64,000 bases of DNA, taken from assembly GCA_964457775.1 (NCBI GenBank), contig CAYWEW010000004.1, positions 24,705 through 88,704 on the forward strand, read 5' to 3'. This stretch comes from an uncultured Candidatus Saccharibacteria bacterium (GTDB taxonomy: Bacteria; Patescibacteriota; Minisyncoccia; Phycocordibacterales; UBA5272). Shown piece after piece: positions 1 through 22,561 of the stretch (position 1 is the stretch's first letter; each line of letters opens with the position of its first letter). The position numbers were made by a program, and so were the translations under genes. The notes beneath the pieces are model-generated. The model did no database searches, was not told the DNA's origin, and worked only from the letters and a program-made list of their open reading frames with translations.

Positions 1-447
1 CAGAGACCAATTAGAGTTGATTTAGCGGAAGTTCTTATTGTTAAATTAAATATTCCTCCTGTATCAATAACTATTATTGATGGACCTTTTACTACACTTG
101 TGCCGACTGGAAACAAAAACGAATTCACTCTCTATCATGTTACAGAATCAATACTTGATCGATATGTGCCCAAAAATGGCTTAATTAAAAAGGATTGGAA
201 GAGATTGTCGAATCAAGAATCAATTATTAAAGAGAGTCAAAAATTCTTACCAATACTAAAAGATGCTGTTGTCACCGAATCAAGAATAGTGCATCGTGGT
301 GTAGAGGCGTATCGTGAACATGATGATTCTAGAGTTGTTGACCTTGTTGAACACGGCTTTGGGTGTTTTTCAATATTAAGTGGGAAAATATTAAGCAGTG
401 TAACTACTGGCAAAAAAATTGCTAACATTATTAAAAAAAATAAATAA
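1..447 (+). CDS. C-terminal fragment of an unidentified protein; gene begins upstream of the window
   Basis: The reading frame is open from position 1 with no stop until 447. The listed ORF start at 100 is internal. No recognisable motif. Confidence 0.4.
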   Translation, partial: QRPIRVDLAEVLIVKLNIPPVSITIIDGPFTTLVPTGNKNEFTLYHVTESILDRYVPKNGLIKKDWKRLSNQESIIKESQKFLPILKDAVVTESRIVHRGVEAYREHDDSRVVDLVEHGFGCFSILSGKILSSVTTGKKIANIIKKNK

Positions 448-449
448 GC

Positions 450-1181
450 TTATTTTTTTAAATTAGACAGGTATAGAAGAGTGGCATCTAGTGCATCTAA
501 ATTTCCAGTATCAAGCCAAACAGAATATGGCACCCATGTGAAATCTGCCCCTCTTTTAATCATTTCATCTAAAATTGGCACATCTGAAATTTGAGAATCG
601 TTTGGATTATTTTTATAAATTTGTTCCAAGATTTCCCAATACATTTTATAATCAAAAATACCATCTAATCCTATATGAATTGAATCAAATCCTAAAATAC
701 CTCTTTCGTTAAAGTGAAGTATTCTATTGTTCTTTATTGAGTGAGTTCTATAGTGTTCAAGTGGTAATTTACTAACATTCCAATCCTCAACATACCCACC
801 AATCCAATTGTGATCAGGTTCTGGAATTTTCTCAACAAAAATACCATCACATGCATGAAATATAAACGGGCACTGCAAATTGTCTTTTGCCTTTAACATA
901 GAATACCCAAGACTACTCCCCTCTCCTTCGTATTTATCAACCCAAACAAATTCAAAAATTCTTTCAGGATATTCTTTTTCAAGAAAGTCTTTAACGGATT
1001 GCCCTAAATATCCTAAAGTTATAACTATCGGGATATTAAATGGATAAGAGTCTAAAAGATAACAAATAGTTGCTCTACCATTTAACGGAACTAGTGATTT
1101 ATTTACTGTCTTTGTAATTTCTCCTAACCGTGAACCAGTCCCTGATGTTGGAATTAAAACTTTATACTTTAAACTACTCAT
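450..1181 (-). CDS. sugar-phosphate nucleotidyltransferase (NTP_transferase fold)
   Basis: N-terminal KVLIPTSGTGSRLG glycine-rich loop. Paralogous to the N-terminal domain of the 2628-4226 gene. Last gene of the minus-strand operon. Confidence 0.65.
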   Translation of the reverse strand: MSSLKYKVLIPTSGTGSRLGEITKTVNKSLVPLNGRATICYLLDSYPFNIPIVITLGYLGQSVKDFLEKEYPERIFEFVWVDKYEGEGSSLGYSMLKAKDNLQCPFIFHACDGIFVEKIPEPDHNWIGGYVEDWNVSKLPLEHYRTHSIKNNRILHFNERGILGFDSIHIGLDGIFDYKMYWEILEQIYKNNPNDSQISDVPILDEMIKRGADFTWVPYSVWLDTGNLDALDATLLYLSNLKK

Positions 1182-1195
1182 CTAAATTTTTGATA

Positions 1196-1606
1196 CTACT
1201 CCTCTCTAACAGAATCAACTACTGCGTGCTCACTTTCGATTTTTCCATCTGGTCTTTGGGTATCATCTTCTAAACGTACCACATCATCAACCTCAGGGGT
1301 AGAAACCTCCTGAAGAATAATGTCAGTAATAGCAATAACACGATGCTTCTTAGGTGGCGCAACATTGAAAAAGTCTCCTGCTGTCATCTGGAATTTCTCC
1401 ACAACACCATTGTCATTTTCAAGCCAAACTTCTGCTTCTCCAGCAATAATAAAGTTAGTTTCAATTTTTTTATTATGATACTGATAACTTGTACGTGTTC
1501 CTGCGTTTATATAAATACGCTTATAACAATAATGGTCATTTAACTCAAGCCAAACTTCCTTTCCCCATGGCTTTGTAACTTCTTTGAATGGTTTACTCTT
1601 GTACAT
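1196..1606 (-). CDS. stand-alone cupin, mannose-6-phosphate-isomerase type II C-terminal-domain-like
   Basis: KPWGKEVW...YQYHNKK...F motif pattern mirrors the cupin end of the ManC encoded at 15069-16496 (KPWGEYEVL...QRHKRR). Confidence 0.55.
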   Translation of the reverse strand: MYKSKPFKEVTKPWGKEVWLELNDHYCYKRIYINAGTRTSYQYHNKKIETNFIIAGEAEVWLENDNGVVEKFQMTAGDFFNVAPPKKHRVIAITDIILQEVSTPEVDDVVRLEDDTQRPDGKIESEHAVVDSVREE

Positions 1607-2612
1607 AGTGATTAATTACATCTGATATAGTATTAATAATTGTTTCCTTTATATCTTCACGCTTAGAAAGTTCATTAATAAGCGCTAAATATGCTGGCTT
1701 TCCAAAATGATAATGTCCTGCGATTACTGAACATAACATTTTATTTTCTGCTGTATTTTTATTCATCCACTTTTTCCACTTACCTCCTTGATAAACTTCT
1801 TCTAGAAAATCATCAACTGGTATTCCGTAAACAAGGCACTTTGTGAGAACGATTTGTGTTTGAATAACGCCTAATTGTGGAGCAATATTAAGAGCATCAA
1901 CTATACCTCTTCTCATATTTATATCATCCTTTGGAAGATAATCTGCATTGTGTTCCTTTAACTTAAGTCCTTTGCTTTGCAACATCTTCGCAACCTTTTC
2001 AACAAAAGGCTTATTAAATGAGCCCGCTTGATTAATCTCCTTAATCACAGTTCCAGTTTGCACAACGTAAAACTCTGGATTACAAAAACTCTTAAAGAAA
2101 TCTATTTCCCTCTCCCATTCTGCCAAGTTAGGTAAGCTGTAATTTGTCCCAGTGTTTTCATCAGTACCAATCTCAAGCTCGATTTTTGGATTTAATTCTA
2201 AACAATGTAGTATCGCCTTCTTAGTTGCCTCTAATCTTTCACTATTAGTTCCTTTAAAGTGACAAAAGTCTATATGGATGAGATCAAAACCATTTTTTAT
2301 GTCATCTTCAATGGTTTTGTAAGTATCGTCTAAGTCAAAGTCACCATTAAAACCAGGACCACAATGATCTCGACAAATCTTAACTTTGGCAAGAGGGTTA
2401 TGTTTTTTCATATCCACCACAAATTCCATATATTCTTTAGTGGTCCAGTTGTTTACATAACCACCTTTGTAATCAATTTGATTTTTTGAAGCAATAAGCA
2501 TTAATGGCTTACGATGAAAATGGGAATATCTAAAAGTTGCCTCAACAATCTCCGGACTCATCGGACCAAGTGCAATTGATATAGAATTTGTGCTGTTTTT
2601 AAGTGAAATCAT
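1593..2612 (-). CDS. GatZ/KbaZ-family TIM-barrel protein (tagatose-bisphosphate aldolase accessory / ketose-phosphate epimerase family)
   Basis: LMLIASKNQIDYKGGYV...ICRDHCGP...LIHIDFCHF...EIGTDE aligns with GatZ motifs LIEATSNQVNQFGGYT...LGGDHLGP...IHLDCS...IGTEVP. Confidence 0.6.
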   Translation of the reverse strand: MISLKNSTNSISIALGPMSPEIVEATFRYSHFHRKPLMLIASKNQIDYKGGYVNNWTTKEYMEFVVDMKKHNPLAKVKICRDHCGPGFNGDFDLDDTYKTIEDDIKNGFDLIHIDFCHFKGTNSERLEATKKAILHCLELNPKIELEIGTDENTGTNYSLPNLAEWEREIDFFKSFCNPEFYVVQTGTVIKEINQAGSFNKPFVEKVAKMLQSKGLKLKEHNADYLPKDDINMRRGIVDALNIAPQLGVIQTQIVLTKCLVYGIPVDDFLEEVYQGGKWKKWMNKNTAENKMLCSVIAGHYHFGKPAYLALINELSKREDIKETIINTISDVINHYVQE

Positions 2613-2627
2613 AATTGTGATATTTTA

Positions 2628-4226
2628 TCACACCTTCAATGATTTATGAAGCATACTTCTTCCGAGACCGTGTAACAAATTATCAAACGGCGCATTATGA
2701 AGTGGTGCCATATTTAAGAAAATCAATGAAGTAATAATCTTAATCTTTCTTAAATCATAATTATTATCTAGCAAAAACTGCTCGTAATGTTCTTTTACTT
2801 CTAATAAATCACTTTTTACAAAATAATCATAATACGCATGGTCCCCAGAAACACTTGCTGAAAACATGCCGTCCTTAATCAATGGGTAAGATAGTATTGT
2901 TCCACCGTATAGTTTTGCAAGATCATAATATAAGTCACCTACATGAACCAATCCACCGAACTCATGCCTCCAATCAAGAAGTAAGAATTTATCCTTTTCT
3001 GATGATTTATTTTTTGAAATTAAAATATTATCAAATTGCAAATCACCGTGAAAATTTGATGGTGTCCCGCCTGCAATGTAATCCCAATCAATTTTTGCTA
3101 ATAATTCTTTTGTTGTTGGGACTTCTACCCCATTAACAAAACGACTTTCTTCTTCTGTGTTTGCTTTATCGGCATACATTTTAAGACGCTTTTCTGTTTT
3201 TGTTTTATAAAAATCTAGACAAGCTTTACTAAAATCATCTTTTTCTTTTTCAGATAATTTTGTATTTTTCCATAAGTATGTTTTTGCCCACTCCAAAAAT
3301 TCTCCTGCGACTTTTTGATTAAGTGCACTATATACAGTTTGCCCATCAACCATTTTGTATGAATAAAAATGATTTCTATGCCCTTCTATTTCTGGGGAAA
3401 TACCTGATAGGGCATTGTTTGCTCTGTGATTTCTTTTTTCTGTTACTGTTTTGTCAGCAAAAAACTTAATAACTCTACCGTTAACAAAATAAAGGAATTC
3501 ATCATCTTTACTGAAATCAAACTTGTGCCCTCCCCCTGAGAAATTAATATTTGTTTCTATATAGTTATCCTTAGACCCTGTATCAAACCAAGTGAAACCA
3601 ATTGGGACCAGCTTCTTTTCAATAAGCCCCTTGAAACCATCTGTCATTTGAAGCTCGTTTGCTTTTATTTCATTACTTTGCTCCAAGGCTAAGAAAAAGT
3701 CTTTATAATCACGAATTCCTGCCAATCCAATAAAAGCAAATTTATTATCGGTTTTAACTTTAGTATCTAGTTGGCATACAAGATTATTTTTTATTTTAAC
3801 AGTACAATATTGTTCTGTTTCATGAACTGGTGCAATACCTAACCAGTTTTCATCAATCTCTGGAATATCCTCAAGAACTATTGTGTCCGCTGTACAAAAA
3901 ATAAAAGGTGATTGTAAATGTTTCTTACAAGCCAAAAGTGAGTAACCTGGTCCACTGCCTGGTCCACTATATTTATCAACTTCAACAAAAGTAAACTTTC
4001 TATCTGGATATGCAAGTGTGAGATAGTCAACAACTGTATCCTTTTTATGCCCAACTGCTATTATTATTTCGGTATCTTCAGGAAACTTTTCGATAATATA
4101 AGAAATAACCGCCTTATTATTAACTGGTAAAATTCCTCTGTTGATTGAATCAGTGAAGTGACTTTCTTTTGGATCAACACCCGCTGCCAATATACAAACT
4201 TTATATTTATTATCTCCTATTTTCAT
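2628..4226 (-). CDS. bifunctional sugar-phosphate nucleotidyltransferase (N-terminal) / APH-choline-kinase-like phosphotransferase (C-terminal)
   Basis: N-terminal VCILAAGVDP...GPGYSLL nucleotidyltransferase fold. C-terminal HGDLQFDNILI Brenner kinase motif and DLYYDLAKL. Confidence 0.65.
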   Translation of the reverse strand: MKIGDNKYKVCILAAGVDPKESHFTDSINRGILPVNNKAVISYIIEKFPEDTEIIIAVGHKKDTVVDYLTLAYPDRKFTFVEVDKYSGPGSGPGYSLLACKKHLQSPFIFCTADTIVLEDIPEIDENWLGIAPVHETEQYCTVKIKNNLVCQLDTKVKTDNKFAFIGLAGIRDYKDFFLALEQSNEIKANELQMTDGFKGLIEKKLVPIGFTWFDTGSKDNYIETNINFSGGGHKFDFSKDDEFLYFVNGRVIKFFADKTVTEKRNHRANNALSGISPEIEGHRNHFYSYKMVDGQTVYSALNQKVAGEFLEWAKTYLWKNTKLSEKEKDDFSKACLDFYKTKTEKRLKMYADKANTEEESRFVNGVEVPTTKELLAKIDWDYIAGGTPSNFHGDLQFDNILISKNKSSEKDKFLLLDWRHEFGGLVHVGDLYYDLAKLYGGTILSYPLIKDGMFSASVSGDHAYYDYFVKSDLLEVKEHYEQFLLDNNYDLRKIKIITSLIFLNMAPLHNAPFDNLLHGLGRSMLHKSLKV

Positions 4227-4230
4227 ATAT

Positions 4231-5067
4231 TTATTTTTGTTTAATAATCTCCTTTACGTATTTCATCATCATACTAAGTGGCGCTTCTTTTCCAGTATAC
4301 AGTGTAAACTGAGCTGCTGCTTGATGGAAAGACATAACATAACCTGGAACAATTATCTTTTTTTCTTTTTTTGCTGTCTGTATTAATTTAGTGTTAAGTG
4401 GTGATACAACTACATCCATTATCACATCATACTTTTTTATATCATCTTTATTAATAACCATCTCATTAATATTTGGTGACATTCCAACTGGTGTAGCGTT
4501 AATAAAAATATTAGCTTTTATTTCTTTTGTTTTATTATTTGGACAGTATGTAATATTAAACTCACTAGAAACTTTTTTAGATTTTTTGTCATCACGTGAG
4601 GACAAAATTATTTCTTTACAACCTTCTTTTTTAAGAGCTACGATTGCTGCTCTTGCCGCTCCACCTGCTCCAACAATATGAGCAGTTTTTCCTTTTGCTT
4701 TATATACACTGATCAGTGCTTTTTGCACACCTATAACGTCAGTATTGTAACCAGTTAAGATACCATCATTATTAACTACGGTGTTTATTGCCCCTATCTC
4801 TTTTGCAACCACATCAACTTTGTCTAAATATTTACCTATAACAGTTTTATGAGGCATAGATACACCACAACCTTTTATATGAAGAACTCTAACTGCGTCA
4901 ACTGCTTTCGATAAGTCTTTTGGCATTACCTGAAATGGTTTATATATATAATCCATCGACAATGACTTGAACACCTTGTTAAAAATAAGACTACCGAAGT
5001 TACCCGGAGCAATTGCAATAGAAATACAACATGTTGTGTCTTTTGTGATTTTAATATTTTTTTTCAT
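4231..5067 (-). CDS. shikimate/quinate dehydrogenase family oxidoreductase (AroE-like)
   Basis: SMPHK, GAINTV, GYNTD, GAGGAARA and NATPVGM motifs. Confidence 0.7.
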   Translation of the reverse strand: MKKNIKITKDTTCCISIAIAPGNFGSLIFNKVFKSLSMDYIYKPFQVMPKDLSKAVDAVRVLHIKGCGVSMPHKTVIGKYLDKVDVVAKEIGAINTVVNNDGILTGYNTDVIGVQKALISVYKAKGKTAHIVGAGGAARAAIVALKKEGCKEIILSSRDDKKSKKVSSEFNITYCPNNKTKEIKANIFINATPVGMSPNINEMVINKDDIKKYDVIMDVVVSPLNTKLIQTAKKEKKIIVPGYVMSFHQAAAQFTLYTGKEAPLSMMMKYVKEIIKQK

Positions 5068-5072
5068 AATTT

Positions 5073-5576
5073 TTATAGTATATTTTTAATATTCTCGGGT
5101 AATTCAAAAAACTTTTCCATTATATGTAAACATGCTTCCCCTACCGCCCCTTCCCCCGCATTTGTTTGAGTAACATAGTCCGCATGTTTGCGGGCAAGAT
5201 AAAAGGCGCTTGCTGGTGCAATACTATATCTTATGTGATTAAAAATAATAGCATCATGTATACCATCCCCCATATATATAGATTCTTCTAAATCAAAATT
5301 TTCCTGCAACCAAGAAAGCCTACTCGCTTCACTAACTAGTGTTAAATTTAACCCCATGTCTTCTGCTACTCTTTTTCTACTTATATCGAAACCTCTTTTG
5401 TCGGCAGATATAGCACAAACATTTATAAACTTACTGAGCATTTTTATTCCATCATTATCATGTGGGCCAAAAACTTTAGCTAATTTACCATCCTTAGTGT
5501 ACAAAAACTGTCCTGTTGTTAACACCCCATCAACATCCAAAATTAAGTTTTTTATACTTTTTTGTGAAATATTCAT
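5073..5576 (-). CDS. KdsC-family HAD phosphatase (3-deoxy-sugar-phosphate phosphatase-like)
   Basis: LILDVDGVLTTG motif I and GDGIHDA motif. First gene of the minus-strand operon. Confidence 0.7.
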   Translation of the reverse strand: MNISQKSIKNLILDVDGVLTTGQFLYTKDGKLAKVFGPHDNDGIKMLSKFINVCAISADKRGFDISRKRVAEDMGLNLTLVSEASRLSWLQENFDLEESIYMGDGIHDAIIFNHIRYSIAPASAFYLARKHADYVTQTNAGEGAVGEACLHIMEKFFELPENIKNIL

Positions 5577-5634
5577 TAAGTGATTATAGTCTATAAAACT
5601 AAACTTTGCAAAAATATTACAACAAATAAATAAT

Positions 5635-6840
5635 GTGATATATACTACAAAAATGATTTTATACTTCGACAGCTACATTACAGATATACCCTTAAATGGT
5701 CAACATTCTACAATAAACGATGTTGTTAGATACGGTTGCAAAAACTACGCAATGCCAAAAAAAACTGAGATTGCAAAATACTCATTAGCAAGTTATGCAG
5801 TTTACCCTTGGAGTCATGTACTTATACGCTATGAACTTGATAACAAAGACGAGTACGAATCCTTCGATGCTTTCATTTTAAAATTATTCCCGAAGGCGGT
5901 TATTATGCACGAAAGAAGTGACAGCCAAGCTGATTATAGAAAGTCAGTAGAAATATTGGACACTTTTGATGATGATTGGATTTTCTATTCTCCAAACAAT
6001 GACCACCCAATGATGACGAATGATATATCAACAATAGATAAACTTATAGAAAAAGCAAACACTTACAAAGATAAATATGAATTTATCTCTATTTATTATT
6101 CTCATTTTAGTGAATTTCTAAATATATCAAAAAAGAAAAACCCTTTTAATGCTACTTTTGGAAAAGATACTAGAACATTAGAAGAAGATGACTTAGCAAT
6201 AACCATAGTGCGTAATGATGGTGACAACACTGCTGTTCAAATAGTTAACAAAAATCTCTTTAGACACTGGTTCGACTCTAAAGAATTAGGTGGTGGCAGA
6301 ATTATTAGATCAGAAGATGTTAGAAATTATTTTATTACACATAATCAATTAATTATAAATCCAAAAAAAGAGATTTGTGCTCATTTTGATGGTTACCCTC
6401 ACACAATAACTGCAAGACATGAAATTCTCCCAGAAGAAGTCCCTCCTCTTTTTGTTCCTCTTGGTTTTTTTGAAAATAATATAAAAATAAGATACGGGTA
6501 TGACGCTTATAAAGAAGGTTGGACAAATATAAATCCAACCTTAAAAAACTATAGTTTTAAAGACACAGAAACTGGAACAGACCTCAAATGGACACTTGAT
6601 GATATACCGTTATTTTGGAAAGAAAAAATATCTGAAATAGATGCGAATCCTTATCTAGACAAAAATACCATGCAGAAAGCAAGGGATGAAAATTATGAGC
6701 TGATTAAGAACCCTTGGAGTAACGAGTGGTATTATCTTCGTCAAGCCGCATATTTTATATTGGACATAATATATTACAACCCTAAACAAAAATTCCTTAT
6801 TAAAAAAAGTGAGTGGCTAAAGAATAAATCAAAAAAATAA
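5635..6840 (+). CDS. hypothetical protein (401 aa, soluble) within the polysaccharide island
   Basis: Long ORF with no recognisable motif. Start choice uncertain (second ATG at 5653). Confidence 0.4.
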   Translation: MIYTTKMILYFDSYITDIPLNGQHSTINDVVRYGCKNYAMPKKTEIAKYSLASYAVYPWSHVLIRYELDNKDEYESFDAFILKLFPKAVIMHERSDSQADYRKSVEILDTFDDDWIFYSPNNDHPMMTNDISTIDKLIEKANTYKDKYEFISIYYSHFSEFLNISKKKNPFNATFGKDTRTLEEDDLAITIVRNDGDNTAVQIVNKNLFRHWFDSKELGGGRIIRSEDVRNYFITHNQLIINPKKEICAHFDGYPHTITARHEILPEEVPPLFVPLGFFENNIKIRYGYDAYKEGWTNINPTLKNYSFKDTETGTDLKWTLDDIPLFWKEKISEIDANPYLDKNTMQKARDENYELIKNPWSNEWYYLRQAAYFILDIIYYNPKQKFLIKKSEWLKNKSKK

Positions 6841-6842
6841 GT

Positions 6843-8429
6843 TTATTTTTTTATACTTAATCTTTTTAACAGCAAAGAAGAAAAGCGTTCTACGTCATTC
6901 CAATCTTCTTGCTCAAAAAATCCAAAAAATTTATATATAACAATATAAAGAATAAAAGATATACCTCCTGCTATAAGAAGTGTAAATAGGTTAGAAATAA
7001 TATGTGAAACAAAAATATTATTAATTATTCCGACCAAACAACTTGTAACAATAGTTCCAGAAATTATTTTTATATAATATTTTTTTCTATTTAATAGATC
7101 TAAGTATCTAGTTTCAACATAATAAAATAGGTAAAAAATAGGGAGCACAGAAATAAGATATGCCCACGCTGCTCCCTTTATTCCAAAAAAAGGTAATAAT
7201 ACTACAAGTGCTACAACATTTAATAAAGCCATACCAACAGAAGATATTGTTAAAAATTTAAGTTTACCTAAACCTAAAAGAAAACTAGAGAGTGGTACAA
7301 AAAGTGCCAAAATAAAATTAGTTAAAGCCAAAATAACTAAAACGCTTGAAGACCTTTCAGCAAAATCTAAACTAAGCCAATATTGCAAAACCTGATAAGA
7401 AAAAGAAATTGTTGTTATGGTTAATGCCCCTGCAATTATAGTAATTAAACGAAATGTCCTAACATACATAGTCTTCATTCTTAATATTTCGTCACTTCCA
7501 GTAAACTGAGAGGTAAGTGGTAGCATGCCAACACTTAGTGCACCTGAAATACCAGGTATTCTTGTTGCCACATTCCCCGGCATACTATAGTAGGTCAAAT
7601 TACTTGGCCCTGCAAAAAATGGAATTATTAATTTATCCAATGAACTAAGTGATGTGCTGGCAAAATTATTTATGAATGCAACAATTCCAAATCTGTAGCA
7701 CTTAATTATTTCTTCTTTATACCAACGCAACTTAAATGTTGCTATCGGTAAAATGTTTTTTGCATTATAAAAAACAATCAGTGAAAAAATGGCAGTAATT
7801 AATAGTTGAGTAATAAAAATTTCTAATAAAGACCCCCCCAACTTAACAACAAGCAACATACCTAAACTAGAAAGTGTGGTTGATGCAATACTTATTTTAT
7901 TTATAATATCAAATCTCTGTATTGCTTGTAATATTATGTTATATGTCGAAGTTATTGTTGCGAAAAAAATGGCACCGCCAGAAAATATAAAGAGTTTTGA
8001 ATATTTTTCATATTCTGAAAAAGATGCAGGTAAAAAAGAAGTCCCTATTAAAGTAATACTCAATGAAACTAAAAGATAAAATGAACCTAATATAAAAAAT
8101 AGCAAATTAGCTGAATGTATCAAACGTATCATTGCTCCCTCATCCTTCTTCCCGAAATAAAATGAAAGATCTTTAAGTACTGCTAGTGACAAACCAAATT
8201 CCAGCAAACCTAGTAAACCCATTGATGTACTTATAAACAAATAGATACCGTATTCTTTCACCCCTAATGTGAATATAATTATGGGTGTTACTAATAAAGT
8301 AAAAATAATAGGCCAGAGATGCCCGACAATACTATATGAACTATTTTTAAAAGCTTTGTATGTAAGTGATTCTTTTTCCATTTTAGTCCTTTTTATTATA
8401 CTATCATGATAATACAGAACAGTCTTCAC
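6843..8429 (-). CDS. oligosaccharide flippase (Wzx/MOP superfamily)
   Basis: Twelve or more predicted TM segments and Wzx-like composition. Start may be an internal Met. Confidence 0.65.
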   Translation of the reverse strand: MKTVLYYHDSIIKRTKMEKESLTYKAFKNSSYSIVGHLWPIIFTLLVTPIIIFTLGVKEYGIYLFISTSMGLLGLLEFGLSLAVLKDLSFYFGKKDEGAMIRLIHSANLLFFILGSFYLLVSLSITLIGTSFLPASFSEYEKYSKLFIFSGGAIFFATITSTYNIILQAIQRFDIINKISIASTTLSSLGMLLVVKLGGSLLEIFITQLLITAIFSLIVFYNAKNILPIATFKLRWYKEEIIKCYRFGIVAFINNFASTSLSSLDKLIIPFFAGPSNLTYYSMPGNVATRIPGISGALSVGMLPLTSQFTGSDEILRMKTMYVRTFRLITIIAGALTITTISFSYQVLQYWLSLDFAERSSSVLVILALTNFILALFVPLSSFLLGLGKLKFLTISSVGMALLNVVALVVLLPFFGIKGAAWAYLISVLPIFYLFYYVETRYLDLLNRKKYYIKIISGTIVTSCLVGIINNIFVSHIISNLFTLLIAGGISFILYIVIYKFFGFFEQEDWNDVERFSSLLLKRLSIKK

Positions 8430-8456: not shown

Positions 8457-9230
8457 ATGAAATTTACTGTTATAACTCCAACTTACAAAAGAGCAAATAA
8501 ACTGGTTAGAGCTGTTAATTCGGTACTTAGCCAAACATACACTGATTGGGAAATGATAATTGTAAATGATTCCCCGCATGATAATACATATCAAGGTTTT
8601 GCCTCATCAATCAATGACTCACGTATTCACTACCACATAAATGATACAAATCGTGGAGTAAATTATTCTAGAAATTTTGCTATGGACAAAGCATCTTCTG
8701 GTAGTGATTGGACTATATTTTTGGATGACGATGATTACTTAGCGCCTGATTCACTACAAACCTTCCATGATCTTATTTTGCTACATAGTGGAAAAAAGTG
8801 GTTCATCACAAATCGTGCATATGTAGATGGGAAACCAGTCACTCAATTTCCTGCCCCAGAAGCTGAATATTCTTATATATGGGACTGCTTAATTCTTAAG
8901 AGAGGAAAGGGTGATGTGACTCATTGTATAGAAACAAAATTACTCACAACAAACCATATTAGATATTCTAGACATATAAAACAAGCCGAGGAGTGGATCT
9001 TTTACTATCAAATTTCACTTTTAGAAAAATTATTTTATCATGACCACAATAGTACAATTACGGATGGTTATGATATAGAAAATGGTCTCAACTTTAGAAA
9101 AAGAACTCGGGAGGAGCAATTTAACACTCTTATGAAATTTGTACACGAAGGTCAACATTTAAAACTAATTGGGCGTCCAACGTTTATTTTGTACTTATTT
9201 ATGAGATTAATTAGATTATTAATAAAATAA
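8457..9230 (+). CDS. family 2 glycosyltransferase
   Basis: FTVITPTYKRANKLVRAVNSVLSQTYTDWEMIIVNDSP and FLDDDDYLAPD (DxD). Confidence 0.75.
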   Translation: MKFTVITPTYKRANKLVRAVNSVLSQTYTDWEMIIVNDSPHDNTYQGFASSINDSRIHYHINDTNRGVNYSRNFAMDKASSGSDWTIFLDDDDYLAPDSLQTFHDLILLHSGKKWFITNRAYVDGKPVTQFPAPEAEYSYIWDCLILKRGKGDVTHCIETKLLTTNHIRYSRHIKQAEEWIFYYQISLLEKLFYHDHNSTITDGYDIENGLNFRKRTREEQFNTLMKFVHEGQHLKLIGRPTFILYLFMRLIRLLIK

Positions 9231-15068: not shown

Positions 15069-16496
15069 TTGTCTATGAAAAACATTATTTATCCTGTTAT
15101 TTTAGCTGGTGGTTCAGGCACAAGATTATGGCCACGCTCTAGAGAAAAGAGTCCTAAGCAATTCATTCCTCTTATTGAGGGAAGAAGTTTATTCCAAGAA
15201 ACATGTTTACGTTTTTCTGATAGAGGAATGTTTGCCTTTCCAACAATCATAACTCACGAAGAACATCGTTTTCTGGTACGAGATCAATTAAAAAAACTTG
15301 GCATTATTGATGCTAAAATTATCACAGAACCAGTTGCTAAAAACACATTAGCCGCCTGCTTATCTGCATCATATTTTTTAAAAAACACAGTTGGTAATAT
15401 TCCTATGCTGTTTACTCCTGCTGATCATATTACTTCTGAAGATGAACACCTATTAAATACACTTATGAACGCTCTACCCTTTGTTTTGGATGGGGCTATT
15501 TGTATTTTTGGAATTAAACCAAACACACCTAATACTGGTTATGGTTATATAACAAAAGGTAGTATTGTTAATAAAAATATATACAAACCCTCTTTGTTTA
15601 TAGAAAAACCAGAAAAGGAAAGGGCTATTGAACTTATAAAAGATGGAGCTCTATGGAATTCAGGTTTGTATTTTTGTACTCCAGAAACTCTTGAAAGTGA
15701 AGCGACTAAGTATGCGCCTAATTTACAAAATTTATTAGGTAACTTTTTCTTAAAATTAAAAGAAAATACCCATGGTTTTAATGTTATCAATAAGGATGTT
15801 TATGATTCAATTATTCCAATTTCTATAGACAAAGGTATAACTGAGAAAACTGATAGATTAATTATTGCAGAAACTCCTATCATTTGGAATGATCTTGGCT
15901 CTTGGAAATCACTTCATGATCATTTCGACAAAAACGAACATGGAAATGTGATACGTGGAGATGCTGTCTTGCTTGAAACTAAAAATTCATACGTGGAAAG
16001 TACGAGTCGACTTGTTACTATTTTTGGAGTTGAAAGTATTGGTGTTATAGAAACATCTGATGCTGTTTTAGTATTTAACCTTAAAGAAAGTGAGTCGGTT
16101 AAGAAAATTGTTGAAAAATTAAATGAAGACAAGAGAGCGGAGCTTGATGTCCACACTACAGTACAAAAACCATGGGGAGAGTATGAAGTACTTGGAGACG
16201 AAGAACATTATAAGGCAAAGAAATTAACAGTTTATCCAGGAAGCGGAGGACTGAGCATTCAAAGACATAAAAGACGTGCTGAGCACTGGATTGTTGTTAG
16301 TGGCATAGCAACAGTAACATTAGACGATAAAGTTTTTGAACTACAAAAGAATGAATCGGTATTTATTCCTATGGGATCACTTCATCGACTTCAAAATAAT
16401 CATAATGAGGTACTTCAGCTCATTGAAGTTCAAACTGGGGATTATTTTGGCGAAGATGACATTGAAAGGTTTGGTGACACGTACGGAAGGTCTTAG
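15069..16496 (+). CDS. manC: mannose-1-phosphate guanylyltransferase / mannose-6-phosphate isomerase (bifunctional)
   Basis: PVILAGGSGTRLWP N-terminus plus C-terminal cupin KPWGEYE...QRHKRRAEHW. Confidence 0.85.
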   Translation: MSMKNIIYPVILAGGSGTRLWPRSREKSPKQFIPLIEGRSLFQETCLRFSDRGMFAFPTIITHEEHRFLVRDQLKKLGIIDAKIITEPVAKNTLAACLSASYFLKNTVGNIPMLFTPADHITSEDEHLLNTLMNALPFVLDGAICIFGIKPNTPNTGYGYITKGSIVNKNIYKPSLFIEKPEKERAIELIKDGALWNSGLYFCTPETLESEATKYAPNLQNLLGNFFLKLKENTHGFNVINKDVYDSIIPISIDKGITEKTDRLIIAETPIIWNDLGSWKSLHDHFDKNEHGNVIRGDAVLLETKNSYVESTSRLVTIFGVESIGVIETSDAVLVFNLKESESVKKIVEKLNEDKRAELDVHTTVQKPWGEYEVLGDEEHYKAKKLTVYPGSGGLSIQRHKRRAEHWIVVSGIATVTLDDKVFELQKNESVFIPMGSLHRLQNNHNEVLQLIEVQTGDYFGEDDIERFGDTYGRS

Positions 16497-16507
16497 AATA
16501 TAACTTA

Positions 16508-17860
16508 TTATTTATTTCCGAATATTGATTTAAAGAAAGCAATTAATCTTGTATCTTTAACTAGTTTAGTATGTGTTAAATTAGTAGATGTTGAATTTAT
16601 ACTATTTTTATTAGTACTTGTTGACACTTCGATAACACGACTACTTATTTTCTTTTGAATATTATTAACTGCTAATTTTGTAGAAGATAATACTTTATTT
16701 ATTTCTTCTCGACCGGATTGCACAACAATTCTTTGATTATCCTCTGTTACATTTTCCTCAATAACATATCTAGTTACTTCTTCCATTGTTGGAAAAAGTA
16801 TTTTAATAATTGTGCTGGTGCTTATAGTTGTACTTGCAAAGCCCATAGCCATGCTTGATATATGTGTCACACTATTACTAGCAAGTACAGTATTTTTAGG
16901 AAATGAAAAATTTGCTCCATCAACAGAAAGTTTCCATTGAGATAAGTCTAATTCGTAATTATTTGAATTTGAAATATCAATATATTTTCCGTATTTACCT
17001 GTGCCAATTTTTGCAATTGAAATTTCTGGTGTAACAACTCTAACCAACATTCGACCAGTACCTGTTACATATCCGTTTGTTCCTTCTACCGAAACAACAT
17101 ATTTCCCTGGATAAGCATATCTATATATCGTTGAACTACCTACCCCTTGCCCTCCATCACCATATGCCCATGTGTATGTAAGATTATCAATATTTTTCCC
17201 AGCATGATTTAGACCAAAAACTGAAAAATTTGTATCTGCTCCAGCAATTACAATTTTATCTTGAGGTAGATAAAGTACTATGTCTGCAAGTGGAGCCGAC
17301 ATCTGTGCTACTGTTGCTTGAGTATTTGTTATCGATACAGACGAAGATGTTGTACTATATTCTAATACTGATAACTGATTAGTATTTCCAGGAGTTGCAC
17401 TACCTCTTACCCACACACTATCTATTTTTGATAATGTACTTCCGTCATTATTACCACCAATAGAAACAGTATAATTAGTAGCATCTACTTCTTGACCACT
17501 AGAAGTCTGCTTAAGTGAGACGTGTTCACCAGAATTAGAAAGTGAGAAGGCACTGTCGTAAATAATTCCAGAATAGTTTGGATTGTCTTCTAGAAATTTT
17601 GTCGGATTATCTACAATGACGGCATAACCGCCTACTGGTAAAATTGACCCGCCTGAATAACTTGCAATGCTGTGATTTGTGTTACTTTCAAAAAACTTCC
17701 ATGAAGTAATATCTACACCACCACTCGTGTCATTGAATATTTCTATCCATTCACGTGAAGTATCAGACCCTAAAGGGTCATACATTACTTCAGAAATATA
17801 AATTGCCTCAACTTGAGAAACGTAACTTATTAATGAAAAAATAATAAGTAGTTTCTTCAT
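16508..17860 (-). CDS. secreted protein with lamin-tail-domain (LTD) and PKD-like domain
   Basis: Signal peptide MKKLLIIFSLISYVSQVEA. ISEVMYDP..EWIEIFN LTD signature. YTWAYGDG...YAYPGKYVV PKD-like stretch. Confidence 0.55.
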   Translation of the reverse strand: MKKLLIIFSLISYVSQVEAIYISEVMYDPLGSDTSREWIEIFNDTSGGVDITSWKFFESNTNHSIASYSGGSILPVGGYAVIVDNPTKFLEDNPNYSGIIYDSAFSLSNSGEHVSLKQTSSGQEVDATNYTVSIGGNNDGSTLSKIDSVWVRGSATPGNTNQLSVLEYSTTSSSVSITNTQATVAQMSAPLADIVLYLPQDKIVIAGADTNFSVFGLNHAGKNIDNLTYTWAYGDGGQGVGSSTIYRYAYPGKYVVSVEGTNGYVTGTGRMLVRVVTPEISIAKIGTGKYGKYIDISNSNNYELDLSQWKLSVDGANFSFPKNTVLASNSVTHISSMAMGFASTTISTSTIIKILFPTMEEVTRYVIEENVTEDNQRIVVQSGREEINKVLSSTKLAVNNIQKKISSRVIEVSTSTNKNSINSTSTNLTHTKLVKDTRLIAFFKSIFGNK

Positions 17861-19901: not shown

Positions 19902-20158
19902 TTATGCAACTTCTGTTTCTTGAACTTTTTTATTGGGACAATTTTTCTCGAGTGCAATGAGAATCAATTTCCTCAACTCTTCACGACGAACGAATAGGTT
20001 CTTTGAAAGCCCGAGACTAACTCCCGTCCTCGGGTCTTTTTTGTCCGCCAAACCAGCGTCAAGGAAAAGAAATTGCGTGAACACTTCTCTTGCATTCAAT
20101 TCGTTCACAGGAAGACTGAAATTTGGGCGGTGAAAACGGAGCAACTCTCTCGAACTCA
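19902..20158 (-). CDS. hypothetical small protein (85 aa) in the GC-rich island
   Basis: AGGGGA Shine-Dalgarno 7 nt before the ATG at 20158. The longer listed ORF start is unlikely. Confidence 0.4.
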
Positions 20159-20242
20159 TTTGTATTCCCCTTTTTAAGAACATACAGCCGAGACGGCCGA
20201 AACTATACACTACCATTTTTCTCAAAAATTGCAAACAGTATA

Positions 20243-20296
20243 AAAATAAAAAGACCCCCATCTCGCATGACATTGTCATTTGATTTGGGGGTCTGA
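20243..20296 (-). terminator. Rho-independent terminator of the SPFH gene
   Basis: AGACCCCCA...TGGGGGTCT stem with a nested ATGACAaTGTCAT palindrome, followed by TTTTATTTTT on the minus strand. Confidence 0.55.
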
Positions 20297-20311
20297 CCAA
20301 TTACGGTCTTG

Positions 20312-21256
20312 TTATGCAGCCTTCAGGCCAGCAGTCTTGCCGGCCTCGCTCGTCGTCGCCTTTACAGCTGCGACAGTGTTGATCAAGTCACCGGCTGAAC
20401 GTGTGTCGACGATGACCATGTTGCCGTGAGCAGCCGCATTCGAAATGGTATCCAGACGATTGGTCTCGTTTAGGAACTGCATCGCTTCTTGCGAAGTGAG
20501 TCCAGCTTTTGTCATCGTTTCCATCGCTTGCTCGAGACCCCTGGCCATTGCTTCACGCATCTTAGCCATACCTTCACCTTGAAGTCGCTTGCTTTCCGAC
20601 TCTGCTTCTGCAACACCAACGAGTTTGATACGCGCAGCTTCTGCTTCGTTCACAGCCGCTTCTTTGAACCTCTTTGAAGCGATGACGCGGTTGAATGCGT
20701 CACGTACATCGTCGCTCGGCTGCGGTTGGTCAACAAGAACATTCTCGATGATATAGCCATAGCGTTCAAACTGCGTACTCAGAGCCTCTTTCACCTGCCC
20801 TTCCAGCAACTCGCGATTGACGTAAAGTTCCACCATGTCCATACCCGACGCCGTCTGACGAACGTTGTTGAGTACGTATGAAGTGATCTGCACTTCTGGT
20901 TTCTCGAGTTCGTAATGTGCCTTAACGGCACCCACCGAATCATCGCTCGCACGATACTGCACCTTAACGGGAAGTGTCATGAAGGCGTCGTCCTTGGTCT
21001 TGACACTTACATTGGTCTTTGTTTCTTGTTGTTGCAAGTTGACGAAATGTCTAACCGATGTTATCGGCCAAGGCATCTTGAACTGTAGACCAGGCAAACG
21101 TGCACGTGCGTGCGGTTTCCCGAAGGTCTCGAGGATACCTGCCGTCTTTCCACGAACGATGAAGATCGAGGTGAAAATAAGCCAGAACGTAACGAGAACC
21201 ATGACCATTTTCCACGAGAAGATGAAACCGACGATGTTGCTTAGGATGATTTCCAT
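20312..21256 (-). CDS. SPFH/band-7 domain protein (stomatin/HflC-like)
   Basis: N-terminal TM segment, then ...DAFNRVIASKRFKEAAVNEAEAARIKLVGVAEAE. RBS-supported ATG at 21256. Confidence 0.75.
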   Translation of the reverse strand: MEIILSNIVGFIFSWKMVMVLVTFWLIFTSIFIVRGKTAGILETFGKPHARARLPGLQFKMPWPITSVRHFVNLQQQETKTNVSVKTKDDAFMTLPVKVQYRASDDSVGAVKAHYELEKPEVQITSYVLNNVRQTASGMDMVELYVNRELLEGQVKEALSTQFERYGYIIENVLVDQPQPSDDVRDAFNRVIASKRFKEAAVNEAEAARIKLVGVAEAESESKRLQGEGMAKMREAMARGLEQAMETMTKAGLTSQEAMQFLNETNRLDTISNAAAHGNMVIVDTRSAGDLINTVAAVKATTSEAGKTAGLKAA

Positions 21257-21306
21257 TGATTGAACTCCTGTAGTGGTTGACAAAAAACATCTATATAAAC
21301 AGATGT

Positions 21307-21335
21307 ACTATATCATGATTATAATATTTTGTCAA
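21307..21335 (-). promoter_or_regulatory. sigma70-like promoter of the SPFH gene
   Basis: On the minus strand: TTGACA, 17-nt spacer, TATAGT, then GGAG RBS and ATG. Confidence 0.4.
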
Positions 21336-21352
21336 GCAAATTTTATCCGAAT

Positions 21353-22561
21353 TTACTGAGCTTTAAGAGCGGTCTGGGTGTATTTATTCGAAGGATCCCA
21401 CAGCATCCAGGATTTTATTCCTAAACGTTCACCGGCGCTAATTTGAGCTCTAACCATTTCCGCAGTATAAACCCCTCCCATATCAAAATCTTGATACCAT
21501 GGGCGATATTTTGCCCTTATAGTAGATGTTGACTGTCCTGTACTACTTGCCACTTCATCAGCAATTTCAATACCTAATTTCATGGAATAAGTAATGATTT
21601 CTCCTGGGTGTTGGGCTGGTTTTTGATAGCCTGCTGTTCCTGGATAAAAGTGTGAGGGATATATCATTGGAGCAACATAATCAAAAGTTTGAAGAGCGGC
21701 ATGCATATCTTGTCCAAGCACAGCAATGTCCACTTTTGTAACCATAATAATTCCGAACAAATCCCCTGACACAGGAATACCATCTTTTCTTAATGAGTCA
21801 GTAATATAATGATAAAAATCAGAAATTATAGCAGGCTTGTTTACATGTACCCCTCCTTTACCACTAATTGGAAATGACATGTCAGCTAATGCTCCATCGG
21901 TAGGGAATCTTATGTAGTCCAAATTAACTTCATCAAATCCTCGTGCGTAACTTTCTTTAGAAAGATCTTCAATGTATCTCCACATCTTTCTTGAGCCAGA
22001 GTCTACCCATGGTATGCCTTTATGATCCTTCCAAACTCCTCCCGTTTTTTTTGATAATACTGCTTCTTCTGGATGAAGTTTCACATAAAGCGGATCTTGA
22101 AAGGCAGACACGCGCGCAATAACATAAATATTTTTACTATGAAGCTCATCGATAAATTCGTTTATGTCTCGTGCTCGACCATCCCATGTAATTACTCCAG
22201 TATTATCTTTGACATCAATAACAACTGCGTTTAATTCAGTATCTTCAATCAGCTTCACAAGACGTGAGCGAATAGATGGACTACCAGCAACCCAACTCGA
22301 CATATATACCGCCTTCACATGCTCTGGTGTTTTGATATGAGTAACAATTCTTGGTGTTGTTGTTGCATTAACACTCTTTGAATTATTTTCTTTTTTTGAA
22401 ACACTACCAACAATACTAGAAGAGGTTGTAGCCTTTTCTTCTGCAAGAACATATTCCTCTGTTCCAAAATTCTTTACTATGGAAACATGTTGATACCCAC
22501 TATACATTATCCAAAAAAAAACTAAACTAACTAATGTTATAAACGCCCCGATTATTTTCAT
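21353..22561 (-). CDS. membrane-anchored putative glycoside hydrolase (GHL/DUF4015-type TIM barrel)
   Basis: N-terminal TM anchor. FDEVNLDYIRFP motif typical of GHL families. Confidence 0.5.
   Translation of the reverse strand: MKIIGAFITLVSLVFFWIMYSGYQHVSIVKNFGTEEYVLAEEKATTSSSIVGSVSKKENNSKSVNATTTPRIVTHIKTPEHVKAVYMSSWVAGSPSIRSRLVKLIEDTELNAVVIDVKDNTGVITWDGRARDINEFIDELHSKNIYVIARVSAFQDPLYVKLHPEEAVLSKKTGGVWKDHKGIPWVDSGSRKMWRYIEDLSKESYARGFDEVNLDYIRFPTDGALADMSFPISGKGGVHVNKPAIISDFYHYITDSLRKDGIPVSGDLFGIIMVTKVDIAVLGQDMHAALQTFDYVAPMIYPSHFYPGTAGYQKPAQHPGEIITYSMKLGIEIADEVASSTGQSTSTIRAKYRPWYQDFDMGGVYTAEMVRAQISAGERLGIKSWMLWDPSNKYTQTALKAQ

Follow-up and report, generated by a model that had tools for sequence, protein, structure and literature searches.

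The window analysed here, a stretch of 64,000 nucleotides from a contig of an uncultured Candidatus Saccharibacteria bacterium (GenBank assembly GCA_964457775.1, contig CAYWEW010000004.1, positions 24,705 to 88,704 of the forward strand), carries at positions 450 to 5576 an operon of six genes. By analogy with characterised systems, we consider it somewhat probable that this operon encodes a self-contained route from a central ketose phosphate to a nucleotide-activated rare aldose for a Wzx-dependent surface glycan. The genes encode, in order of transcription, a KdsC-type phosphatase of the HAD family, a SdhL/AroE-like oxidoreductase of the shikimate dehydrogenase type (hereafter SDH-like), a nucleotidyltransferase-kinase fusion (NTK), a GatZ-like TIM barrel, a cupin of the phosphomannose isomerase (PMI) type and a second, stand-alone nucleotidyltransferase (NT2). 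All six ORFs delimited in the initial annotation were found with the same boundaries, co-directional on the minus strand (Table 1), and their spacings, counted from the HAD gene, were 5, 4 and 15 nt, a 14-nt overlap and 14 nt. Pfam and NCBIfam agreed with the families that had been named for the six proteins, every match being under the curated equivalog cut-off. To judge from their sequences, the six proteins are divergent members of these families and not orthologues of KdsC, AroE, GatZ, LicA/LicC or PMI. The earlier view that this composition matches no textbook route was sustained by comparison of the families, of the gene context and of the literature, in which no description of a cluster with this gene combination was found.

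Conservation of the gene set

More than 2500 homologues of the NTK were found, and an exhaustive HMMER scan gave 659 clusters at 50% identity with E ≤ 1e-30. The homologues nearest to the window NTK were 60–77% identical and came from Patescibacteria and DPANN archaea, its closest relatives belonging to Candidatus Yonathbacteria and Kaiserbacteria. Homologues of the GatZ-like protein showed the same distribution pattern. When one genome per species was scanned, 80 non-redundant NTK loci were obtained. Beyond the candidate phyla radiation (CPR) and DPANN, these included metagenome-assembled genomes (MAGs) labelled SAR86, Pelagibacteraceae, Halieaceae, Legionella, Planctomycetota, Gemmatimonadota, Verrucomicrobiota, Bdellovibrionales, Elusimicrobia and Omnitrophota. 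Around the NTK homologues of these 80 genome loci and of 74 viral contigs the same roles recurred. A census by tblastn covered the 57 genome loci in which the NTK has 4 kb or more of sequence on either side: the cupin and the GatZ-like protein were each present in 55, a reductase in 51 and a phosphatase also in 51, and all five roles were found together in 46. The corresponding figures for 57 viral loci were 57 for the cupin, 54 for the GatZ-like protein and 57 for the SDH-like enzyme.

The reductase was SDH-like in 33 of the 57 genome loci and a classical FabG-like SDR of about 240 aa in 18, and the two were never found together. A KdsC-type HAD provided the phosphatase in 49 loci and an IMPase-family protein in two, and in the viral modules a PNK3P-like HAD of about 120 aa stood in place of the KdsC-type HAD. 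In addition, the cupin was fused to the NTK (loci L067 and L080 and about 70 viral contigs), the NTK to the GatZ-like protein (L044 and L050), and NT2 to a HAD or to an IMPase. That roles are kept through non-homologous replacement speaks strongly for the dehydrogenase and the aldolase-like gene as members of the pathway. The initial annotation had taken the operon for one functional unit and had proposed a gene-neighbourhood comparison. The same gene set recurs far beyond chance, and the co-occurrence, the fusions and the role-preserving displacements all support a single unit. The opposite case that it had considered, with the dehydrogenase and the aldolase-like genes as unrelated neighbours, came out negative, because two non-homologous enzymes, never found in one locus together, fill the role of reductase.

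It is therefore hardly credible that a catabolic GatZ/SDH pair has come to lie by accident beside an unrelated nucleotidyltransferase-kinase salvage pair. GatZ homologues are indeed best known from galactitol and tagatose catabolism, and all domain matches are under the curated cut-offs, as such a juxtaposition would have it. However, the association extends across bacteria, archaea and phages, the gaps between the genes are operonic, and neither a transporter nor a catabolic kinase was found conserved with the module.

Mean NTK identity between CPR and archaeal copies (0.55) was no lower than within CPR (0.54), which suggests repeated inter-domain transfer, with the proviso that MAG labels are imperfect. 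A plasmid search yielded only a distant paralogue in Caballeronia. It lies on plasmid p3 of Caballeronia grimmiae (L087, 8561-10551), where a 'capsular biosynthesis protein' of 130 aa and an NTK-like protein of 536 aa (22% identity) form part of an O-antigen-like cluster with an ABC transporter; this is a cultured bacterium, and the pair is possibly a tractable distant relative. The window NTK itself is 100% identical to a protein of assembly GCA_013565695.1 (contig JACCDT011231186.1). To judge from its contig numbers, that assembly has more than 1 million contigs, and the CPR-like sequence in it may originate in a very large metagenome or in a host assembly with contamination.

Additional genes were observed beside the module in some genomes. 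A TylC3-like C-methyltransferase (Methyltransf_23 plus a C-methyltransferase C-terminal domain) was present in 17 of the 80 genome loci, including L006, L009, L015, L026, L046, L049, L061, L062, L078 and L084, and was fused to NT2 in L074. This enzyme suggests a branched-chain variant of the product and points to an enolisable keto intermediate. An IMPase-family phosphatase often accompanied NT2 in the DPANN or CPR loci L016, L018, L021, L024, L036 and L063, and was fused to it in L018. L021 and L036 encode in addition a PfkB-like kinase of about 283 aa, which gives a second kinase/phosphatase/nucleotidyltransferase set beside the first.

The nucleotidyltransferase-kinase fusion and NT2

The NTK comprises an N-terminal nucleotidyltransferase (NT) domain of the RmlA/GalU/LicC type (about aa 1–230) and a C-terminal APH-like kinase domain (about aa 235–532), and its AlphaFold model had a pLDDT of 84. 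Foldseek placed RmlA and GalU closest to the NT domain, the best profile match of which in the PDB was LicC (1jyk, E 1.6e-8), with MurU reaching only E 1.9 (4y7t). The APH match of the kinase domain was weak (E 0.0017 in the window protein, 1.9e-5 in the best orthologue) and no PDB relative of this domain was detectable by sequence. Its motifs K254, H393-G-D-x-x-F-D-N400 and D418-W-R were at least 95% conserved among orthologues.

The NT domain of the window NTK reads LAAGVDPKES...INR at its catalytic signature, for a consensus of LAAGxGSRMG...INK. The own domain match of NT2 was a weak NTP_transferase, and its 37% identity with the NT domain of the NTK over 227 aa (E 1e-41) identified it as a paralogue of that domain, with an intact signature (G14-x-G16-S-R18 and K28). 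NT2 was found near 13 of the 15 NTKs with a decayed signature and near 4 of the 56 with an intact one (Fisher p 3.8e-9, uncorrected for phylogeny), and the two decayed-signature NTKs lacking NT2 lie in truncated loci. As the presence of NT2 tracks the decay of the signature, the simplest reading is a single activation step in which NT2 stands in for the decayed NT domain, and NT2 is proposed to be the competent sugar-1-phosphate nucleotidyltransferase of the window operon. Thus, the two nucleotidyltransferases of the initial annotation are both present, but NT2 would replace the decayed domain of the fusion and would not add a second activation step. Two successive nucleotide activations of the kind known from legionaminic acid synthesis were dropped in favour of paralogue replacement on account of the same correlation. 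If the NT domain is inactive, as its signature suggests, the NTK and NT2 would be a clean example of a pseudo-enzyme domain backed by a stand-alone paralogue.

Enzymes predicted to act on the sugar phosphate

The AlphaFold model of the GatZ-like protein (pLDDT 86) gave GatZ structures 2fiq and 3txv as top Foldseek hits (TM 0.78, 16% identity), ahead of class II fructose-bisphosphate, tagatose-bisphosphate and sulfofructose-phosphate aldolases. GatZ and KbaZ are fructose-6-phosphate/tagatose-6-phosphate 4-epimerases, and for GatZ a retro-aldol chemistry, a His/Glu/His zinc site and a catalytic Asp have been described (PMC11907403). Membership of the GatZ/KbaZ family (IPR012062, TIGR02810) is judged by a match over the whole length that exceeds the curated cut-off, an Asp-His motif, the zinc site and the signature residues Glu44, Cys20 and Lys279. 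The D82-H83 motif of the window protein aligns with D87-H88 of GatZ, and the invariant H83, E147 and H221, located at the ends of strands beta3, beta5 and beta7, match by their placement the His/Glu/His zinc site of GatZ, suggesting a metal site. However, the GatZ-specific Glu44 and Cys20 are I40 and G16 in the window protein, and because they are not conserved we regard it as a separate subfamily. It also differs from GatZ/KbaZ in being about 80 aa shorter, in a sequence similarity limited to the N-terminal 100 aa, about a third of the protein (TIGR02810, 28 bits against a cut-off of 569), and in its biosynthetic rather than catabolic context. It is proposed to carry out metal-dependent retro-aldol chemistry, as a C4 epimerase of ketose phosphates or as an aldolase.

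The SDH-like protein matched shikimate dehydrogenase with 223 bits against a cut-off of 252. Its nearest solved relatives were the AroE of M. jannaschii (1nvt) and HI0607 SdhL (1npy), and the 5-ketofructose reductase 7cok is a member of the same SDH-like family. The catalytic K74/D110 pair, N95, Q249 and R158 are conserved, the last of which suggests the use of NADP(H). The residues of AroE that bind the carboxylate, S14, S16 and Y215, correspond in the alignment to N23, G25 and V221 of the window protein. In HI0607 SdhL, as in the module enzyme, 'NFG' replaces the 'HSxSP' of AroE and the Tyr215 equivalent is lost, with the Lys/Asp dyad kept, but the module enzyme sits inside a nucleotide-sugar operon. 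It is proposed to be a keto-sugar or keto-sugar-phosphate reductase, and both this enzyme and the alternative SDR are, by their families, of types acting on small non-nucleotide substrates. A shikimate, quinate or carbocyclic product was ruled out, given the absence of the AroE carboxylate binders and the substitution by a FabG-like SDR in 18 loci, and the cyclitol intermediate suggested in the initial annotation lost its support for the same two reasons.

The HAD protein matched TIGR01670 (KdsC/YrbI subfamily) with E 4.5e-19 and 68.9 bits against a cut-off of 107, and PRK09484 with 60 against 208. It belongs to the cap-less subfamily IIIA, and in 48 orthologues D14/D16 (DxD) and D104/D108 (GDxxxD) were at least 95% conserved. 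By analogy, it is proposed to remove a distal phosphate. Neither KdsA nor KdsB was found conserved with the module among the loci. A Kdo- or KDN-type ulosonic acid route was rejected because the module has no KdsA-/NeuB-type synthase and no CMP-type synthetase, and the fold of the GatZ-like protein is not that of KdsA.

The cupin matched the C-terminal domain of PMI (PF01050, E 5.5e-9), and its KPWG, Q42-x-H44, E49 and H88 together with the C-terminal R111-x-x-D114-x-x-x-R118 (RxEDDxxR) were at least 95% conserved. Its type II PMI ligand set aligns with the PMI domain of the window's own ManC/PMI, and the protein is proposed to isomerise a ketose phosphate to an aldose phosphate. A role as housekeeping PMI was ruled out by the canonical ManC/PMI in the same window. 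The GDP-mannose route (PMI, phosphomannomutase and GDP-mannose pyrophosphorylase) does not fit either, as no phosphomannomutase is present in the module and ManC/PMI is already encoded elsewhere.

The conserved isomerase also bears on whether the product could be an NDP-polyol, for example a CDP-alditol, as in LicA-LicC, pneumococcal Gtp1-3 and TarIJ. In such a route the reductase would give an alditol, the phosphatase and the kinase would shift the phosphate to another hydroxyl, and the CDP-alditol would be used for a teichoic-acid-like phosphodiester decoration. We consider this improbable. It would account for a near-universal reductase of small-molecule type (SDH-like or FabG-like SDR), known NDP-alditol routes always joining a reductase and an NT, and it agrees with the LicC profile match, with source annotations of choline kinase and with some neighbours of the alkaline-phosphatase superfamily (Phosphodiest 4/131, Sulfatase 3/131). 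However, it leaves the equally universal PMI-like isomerase without a role, and by Foldseek the NT domain is nearest to enzymes of sugar 1-phosphates. Moreover, TagF-, LicD-type and CDP-alcohol phosphotransferases are not among the 25 commonest neighbour families, in which GT1, GT2 and GT4 are found, and the module is present in DPANN archaea and in phages, from which polymers of the teichoic-acid type are not known. The fit to LicA-LicC itself failed, as there was no Choline_kinase (PF01633) match, only the NT resembles LicC and LicD is outside those 25 families.

Comparison with known activation systems

The initial annotation had taken LicA-LicC or AmgK-MurU as precedent. The AfhE/AfhF route to UDP-arabinofuranose fits better, having the same NT-kinase domain order and a remotely homologous kinase core. 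PMC13326640, with reference to He et al. (2026, Nat Chem Biol) and to Mahler et al. (2025, Cell Host Microbe), describes AfhE of phage HY126 as an NT-kinase fusion that acts as arabinose-5-phosphate (Ara-5-P) 1-kinase and UDP-arabinose pyrophosphorylase. According to the same source, an isomerase supplies Ara-5-P from ribulose 5-phosphate (Ru5P), so that the substrate of the kinase is already phosphorylated, and AfhF, a Mg-dependent HAD, acts after the kinase in converting arabinose 1,5-bisphosphate to arabinose 1-phosphate. These systems arabinosylate 5-hydroxycytosine in phage DNA, and homologues of AfhE, AfhF and the arabinose-5-phosphate isomerase are given there for RB69 (gp53:52, gp51 and gp55) and DLP3 (gp83-81).

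Searching viral structures (BFVD) with the NTK model retrieved the RB69 kinase ORF052c (E 3e-10, TMt 0.64) and the adjacent NT ORF053c (E 6e-4), as well as proteins homologous over both domains, from Tenacibaculum phage PTm1, a giant virus and others. By hhalign, the kinase cores aligned with E 2.5e-4 and 36% identity over 70 columns, sharing the motif HGDxxFxN...DxRxxFG...YDxAK, and the NT with E 8.6e-5. The gene order in RB69 is isomerase, NT, kinase and small HAD, and the small HAD of the viral modules shares a PHROG named 'phosphoheptose isomerase', a label that RB69 p051 also carries. Afh and the module have in common an N-terminal RmlA/LicC/MurU-like NT and a C-terminal APH-like kinase in one polypeptide, with adjacent genes, in the same order, for a phosphatase of the HAD-IIIA type and an isomerase of ketose phosphates. 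By analogy with AfhF, the HAD beside the NTK, which is KdsC-type in the window and small and PNK3P-like in the viral versions, would act on the distal phosphate.

There are also differences. The Afh isomerase is a SIS-domain protein, whereas in the module this role would fall to the PMI-type cupin, and no SIS protein was found in the window operon or conserved with the module. The module adds the GatZ-like protein and the reductase as core members, its phosphatase in the window is KdsC-type, and in cellular genomes it lies in a Wzx/glycosyltransferase context and not in one of DNA modification, with about 15% identity between the proteins. The coupling to a 5-hydroxycytosine synthase and to DNA arabinosyltransferases that marks the Afh systems is likewise missing from the neighbourhood of the window operon. 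In the window the NT activity appears to be outsourced to the paralogue NT2, and the substrate is probably not Ru5P/Ara-5-P alone.

The NDP-heptose pathway (GmhA, HldE or HddA, GmhB, HldE-C or HddC) has the same logic of isomerase, C1 kinase, distal HAD-IIIA phosphatase and NT, and HldE is also a kinase-NT fusion, although its domain order is opposite to that of the NTK. Nevertheless, the isomerases (SIS against cupin) and the kinases (PfkB/GHMP against APH-like) are non-homologous, the GatZ-like protein and the reductase are extra in the module, and no heptosyltransferase was found in the window. MupP-AmgK-MurU likewise combines a HAD phosphatase with an APH-type kinase for the anomeric carbon and with a small NT, and FKP of Bacteroides (fucokinase/GDP-fucose pyrophosphorylase) has the same order of N-terminal NT and C-terminal kinase. 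However, neither is orthologous to the module, given the marginal MurU match and the GHMP nature of the FKP kinase. Both are salvage systems without sugar-remodelling enzymes, with which the module is always associated, and the module is abundant in DPANN archaea and phages, which lack murein.

An order of steps following this salvage logic is nonetheless conceivable, if unlikely. The HAD would free the sugar after the GatZ-like enzyme, the cupin and the reductase had acted on its 6-phosphate (or n-phosphate), the kinase would then phosphorylate the anomeric carbon and the NT would activate it, with the same net chemistry and again an NDP-aldose as product. The APH-family sugar kinases NahK, AmgK and MtnK act on unphosphorylated sugars, which is what this order demands of the NTK. 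KdsC-type phosphatases free Kdo or KDN ahead of activation, and the weak MurU likeness of the NT domain points in the same direction. Furthermore, phosphorylation, epimerisation and dephosphorylation in succession are thermodynamically favourable for pulling the GatZ equilibrium (PMC11907403). However, AfhE, the sole characterised NT-kinase fusion of such architecture, phosphorylates a sugar 5-phosphate (PMC13326640). In addition, the HAD and IMPase fusions to NT2 couple the phosphatase with the NT, as expected of consecutive steps, and the cap-less HAD-IIIA and IMPase/FBPase families typically take bisphosphates or bulky substrates.

Phage copies

The 74 viral contigs, all from IMG/VR, carry the cupin-NTK fusion together with genes for a short SDH-like protein, a GatZ-like protein and a small HAD, often followed by a homologue of o401, the 401-aa protein encoded next to the window operon. 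The GenBank entry MH319741, 'Marine virus AG-345-E15' (L167, 19633-22805), has small HAD, cupin, NTK and GatZ-like genes, and the same contig encodes a DNA primase, both ribonucleotide reductase subunits and endonuclease V. Such phage genes beside the module indicate that at least some copies are genuinely phage-borne, here by a T4-like marine phage. In phages the module is possibly an auxiliary glycan or DNA-modification pathway.

For the window operon, by contrast, it is very improbable that the product is a donor for DNA hypermodification, as in the Afh arabinosylation of 5-hydroxycytosine, and not for a surface glycan. The closest characterised relatives act in phage DNA modification (PMC13326640), the module is present on many viral contigs, and an NT-kinase and small-HAD pair of Enterococcus phage 9183 sits among genes for nucleotide and DNA synthesis. 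However, the window operon is flanked by Wzx, GT2 and dTDP-/GDP-sugar genes on a cellular contig, with tRNAs encoded in the window, no thymidylate-synthase-like gene (ThyA homologue) adjoins it, and in the 80 genome loci no neighbours are commoner than flippases and glycosyltransferases.

The pair of Enterococcus phage 9183, gp046-gp047 (L166, 6645-8620), consists of a small HAD, misannotated as 'phosphoheptose isomerase', and of a distantly related NT-kinase fusion (24% identity), and lies among genes for dTMP kinase, a thymidylate-synthase homologue, dUTPase and DNA polymerase. It has the look of a cassette for Afh-type glycosylation of DNA, here in a Gram-positive phage. Synechococcus phage S-CAM1 (L165, 4594-6342) encodes a homologue of the cupin (32% identity, E 7e-16). 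Beside it lie genes for a PfkB kinase, an NT of the HldE type with a cytidylyltransferase-like domain, a small HAD with a DxDGT motif, an epimerase and a GT9-like protein, and none for a SIS isomerase; similar cupin gene sets were observed in S-CAM3, P-TIM68 and Sf-CH8. From its composition, the cyanophage set seems to be a heptose-type pathway with the cupin where GmhA would be. In the cyanophage annotations the 107-aa HAD figures as 'phosphoheptose isomerase' and the cupin as 'cysteine dioxygenase'.

Genomic context of the operon

The coordinates of the operon and of the features close to it are given in Table 1. The neighbours that the initial annotation had named, Wzx, GT2, RmlB, RmlA, GMD, a GDP-fucose-synthase-like SDR and ManC/PMI, were confirmed, and elsewhere the commonest neighbour families of the module were flippases, glycosyltransferases of the GT1, GT2 and GT4 families, methyltransferases and SDR epimerases. 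The promoter match upstream of the HAD gene agrees with the consensus at 10 of 12 positions and is the best in positions 1-7000; it is no more than a match to the consensus, and hits as a whole were not more numerous than in shuffled controls.

Table 1. Operon genes and neighbouring features of the window
Feature	Position	Strand	Size or remark
HAD phosphatase gene, KdsC-type	5576..5073	minus	167 aa
SDH-like oxidoreductase gene (SdhL/AroE-like)	5067..4231	minus	278 aa
NTK gene (nucleotidyltransferase-kinase fusion)	4226..2628	minus	532 aa
GatZ-like TIM barrel gene	2612..1593	minus	339 aa
PMI-type cupin gene	1606..1196	minus	136 aa
NT2 gene (stand-alone nucleotidyltransferase)	1181..450	minus	243 aa
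Sigma-70-like promoter match TTGCAA-17-TATAAT	5583..5612	minus	7 nt upstream of HAD gene
o401	5635..6840	plus	401 aa; divergently transcribed from operon
Wzx-type flippase	6843-8429	minus	Polysacc_synt, MatE matches
GT2 glycosyltransferase	8457-9230	plus	Glycos_transf_2 match
Canonical bifunctional ManC/PMI	15069-16496		

No match to o401 was found in Pfam, NCBIfam or the PDB. Its homologues adjoin the module in 10 of the 80 genome loci and in 17 of the 74 viral contigs, and share the invariant motifs N121-x-D123-H124 and H250-x-D252. The protein is a candidate dedicated transferase for the product and, as such, a candidate new transferase family.

Two other features of the window were observed. 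A 450-aa protein with lamin-tail and PKD domains, probably a surface protein, is encoded on the minus strand at 16508-17860 and adjoins the glycan gene block. The stretch 20001-22000 has a G+C content of 0.45, against about 0.33 in its flanks, and spans the ORFs 20312-21283 and 21353-22561. No Rfam match accounting for this rise was found, and both ORFs are possibly highly conserved housekeeping genes.

Proposed pathway and product

In the route that we propose, the first two steps follow from the families of the enzymes and the third to fifth from analogy, as does the order of the second to fifth. Firstly, the GatZ-like enzyme would remodel a ketose phosphate by retro-aldol chemistry, most simply by C4 epimerisation as GatZ does on fructose 6-phosphate, and the NADPH-dependent SdhL-like enzyme would reduce a carbonyl of a non-nucleotide intermediate. 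The PMI-like cupin would then convert the ketose phosphate to an aldose phosphate, the kinase domain of the NTK would phosphorylate C1 to give a sugar 1,n-bisphosphate, and the KdsC-type HAD would take off the distal phosphate. The fifth step, formation of the NDP-sugar, is assigned in the window genome to NT2 because the NT domain of the NTK has lost its catalytic signature. Finally, o401 and/or the GT2 enzyme may transfer the sugar and Wzx may flip the product.

Several points weigh against this scheme. No reductase is required for turning a ketose phosphate into an aldose, and the near-universal reductase therefore implies a second carbonyl which the scheme does not explain; the extra carbonyl could come from the GatZ-like protein working as an aldolase with a keto-aldehyde acceptor, or the product could be reduced otherwise. 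Indeed, the low identity of this protein to GatZ and its missing Glu44 and Cys20 mean that it could be a true aldolase and not an epimerase. The NT domain of the window NTK keeps basic residues at both signature positions (R20K and K30R), and its inactivity is an inference. The likeness of the NTK to AfhE-type proteins is remote (14–15% identity, hhalign probability 43–60%), the co-occurrence statistics are uncorrected for phylogeny and many taxon labels come from MAG binning. Lastly, all the enzyme activities of the module are predictions, and by analogy they would indicate the class of the product only, hexose, heptose and pentose substrates being alike compatible.

As specific products, NDP-talose, a C4-epimeric heptose, L-pentofuranoses, a 6-deoxyhexose from dihydroxyacetone phosphate and methylglyoxal, and CDP-2-glycerol were weighed and none was supportable. 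Beyond the class of the product, we suggest only tentatively that the module makes an NDP-sugar new to glycans. A retro-aldol enzyme of the GatZ type and a keto-reductase, acting on sugar phosphates and without NDP-sugar 4,6-dehydratases, would determine its carbon skeleton or its stereochemistry. Examples would be a pentofuranose that is C4-epimeric or of the L series, a hexose or heptose with talo configuration, or a deoxy sugar put together by an aldol reaction. The same tentative proposal takes the module as a horizontally exchanged surface-glycan trait of CPR, DPANN and marine phages.

CPR bacteria and DPANN archaea make up a large share of microbial diversity and live attached to hosts, and their surface chemistry is barely known. 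Among their unannotated glycan pathways the module ranks with the more widespread, and it is also found in marine proteobacteria and T4-like phages. Identification of its product would define a new nucleotide sugar and give GatZ-type enzymes their first biosynthetic role, and would extend the activation logic of AfhE and AfhF from phage DNA modification to cellular glycans.

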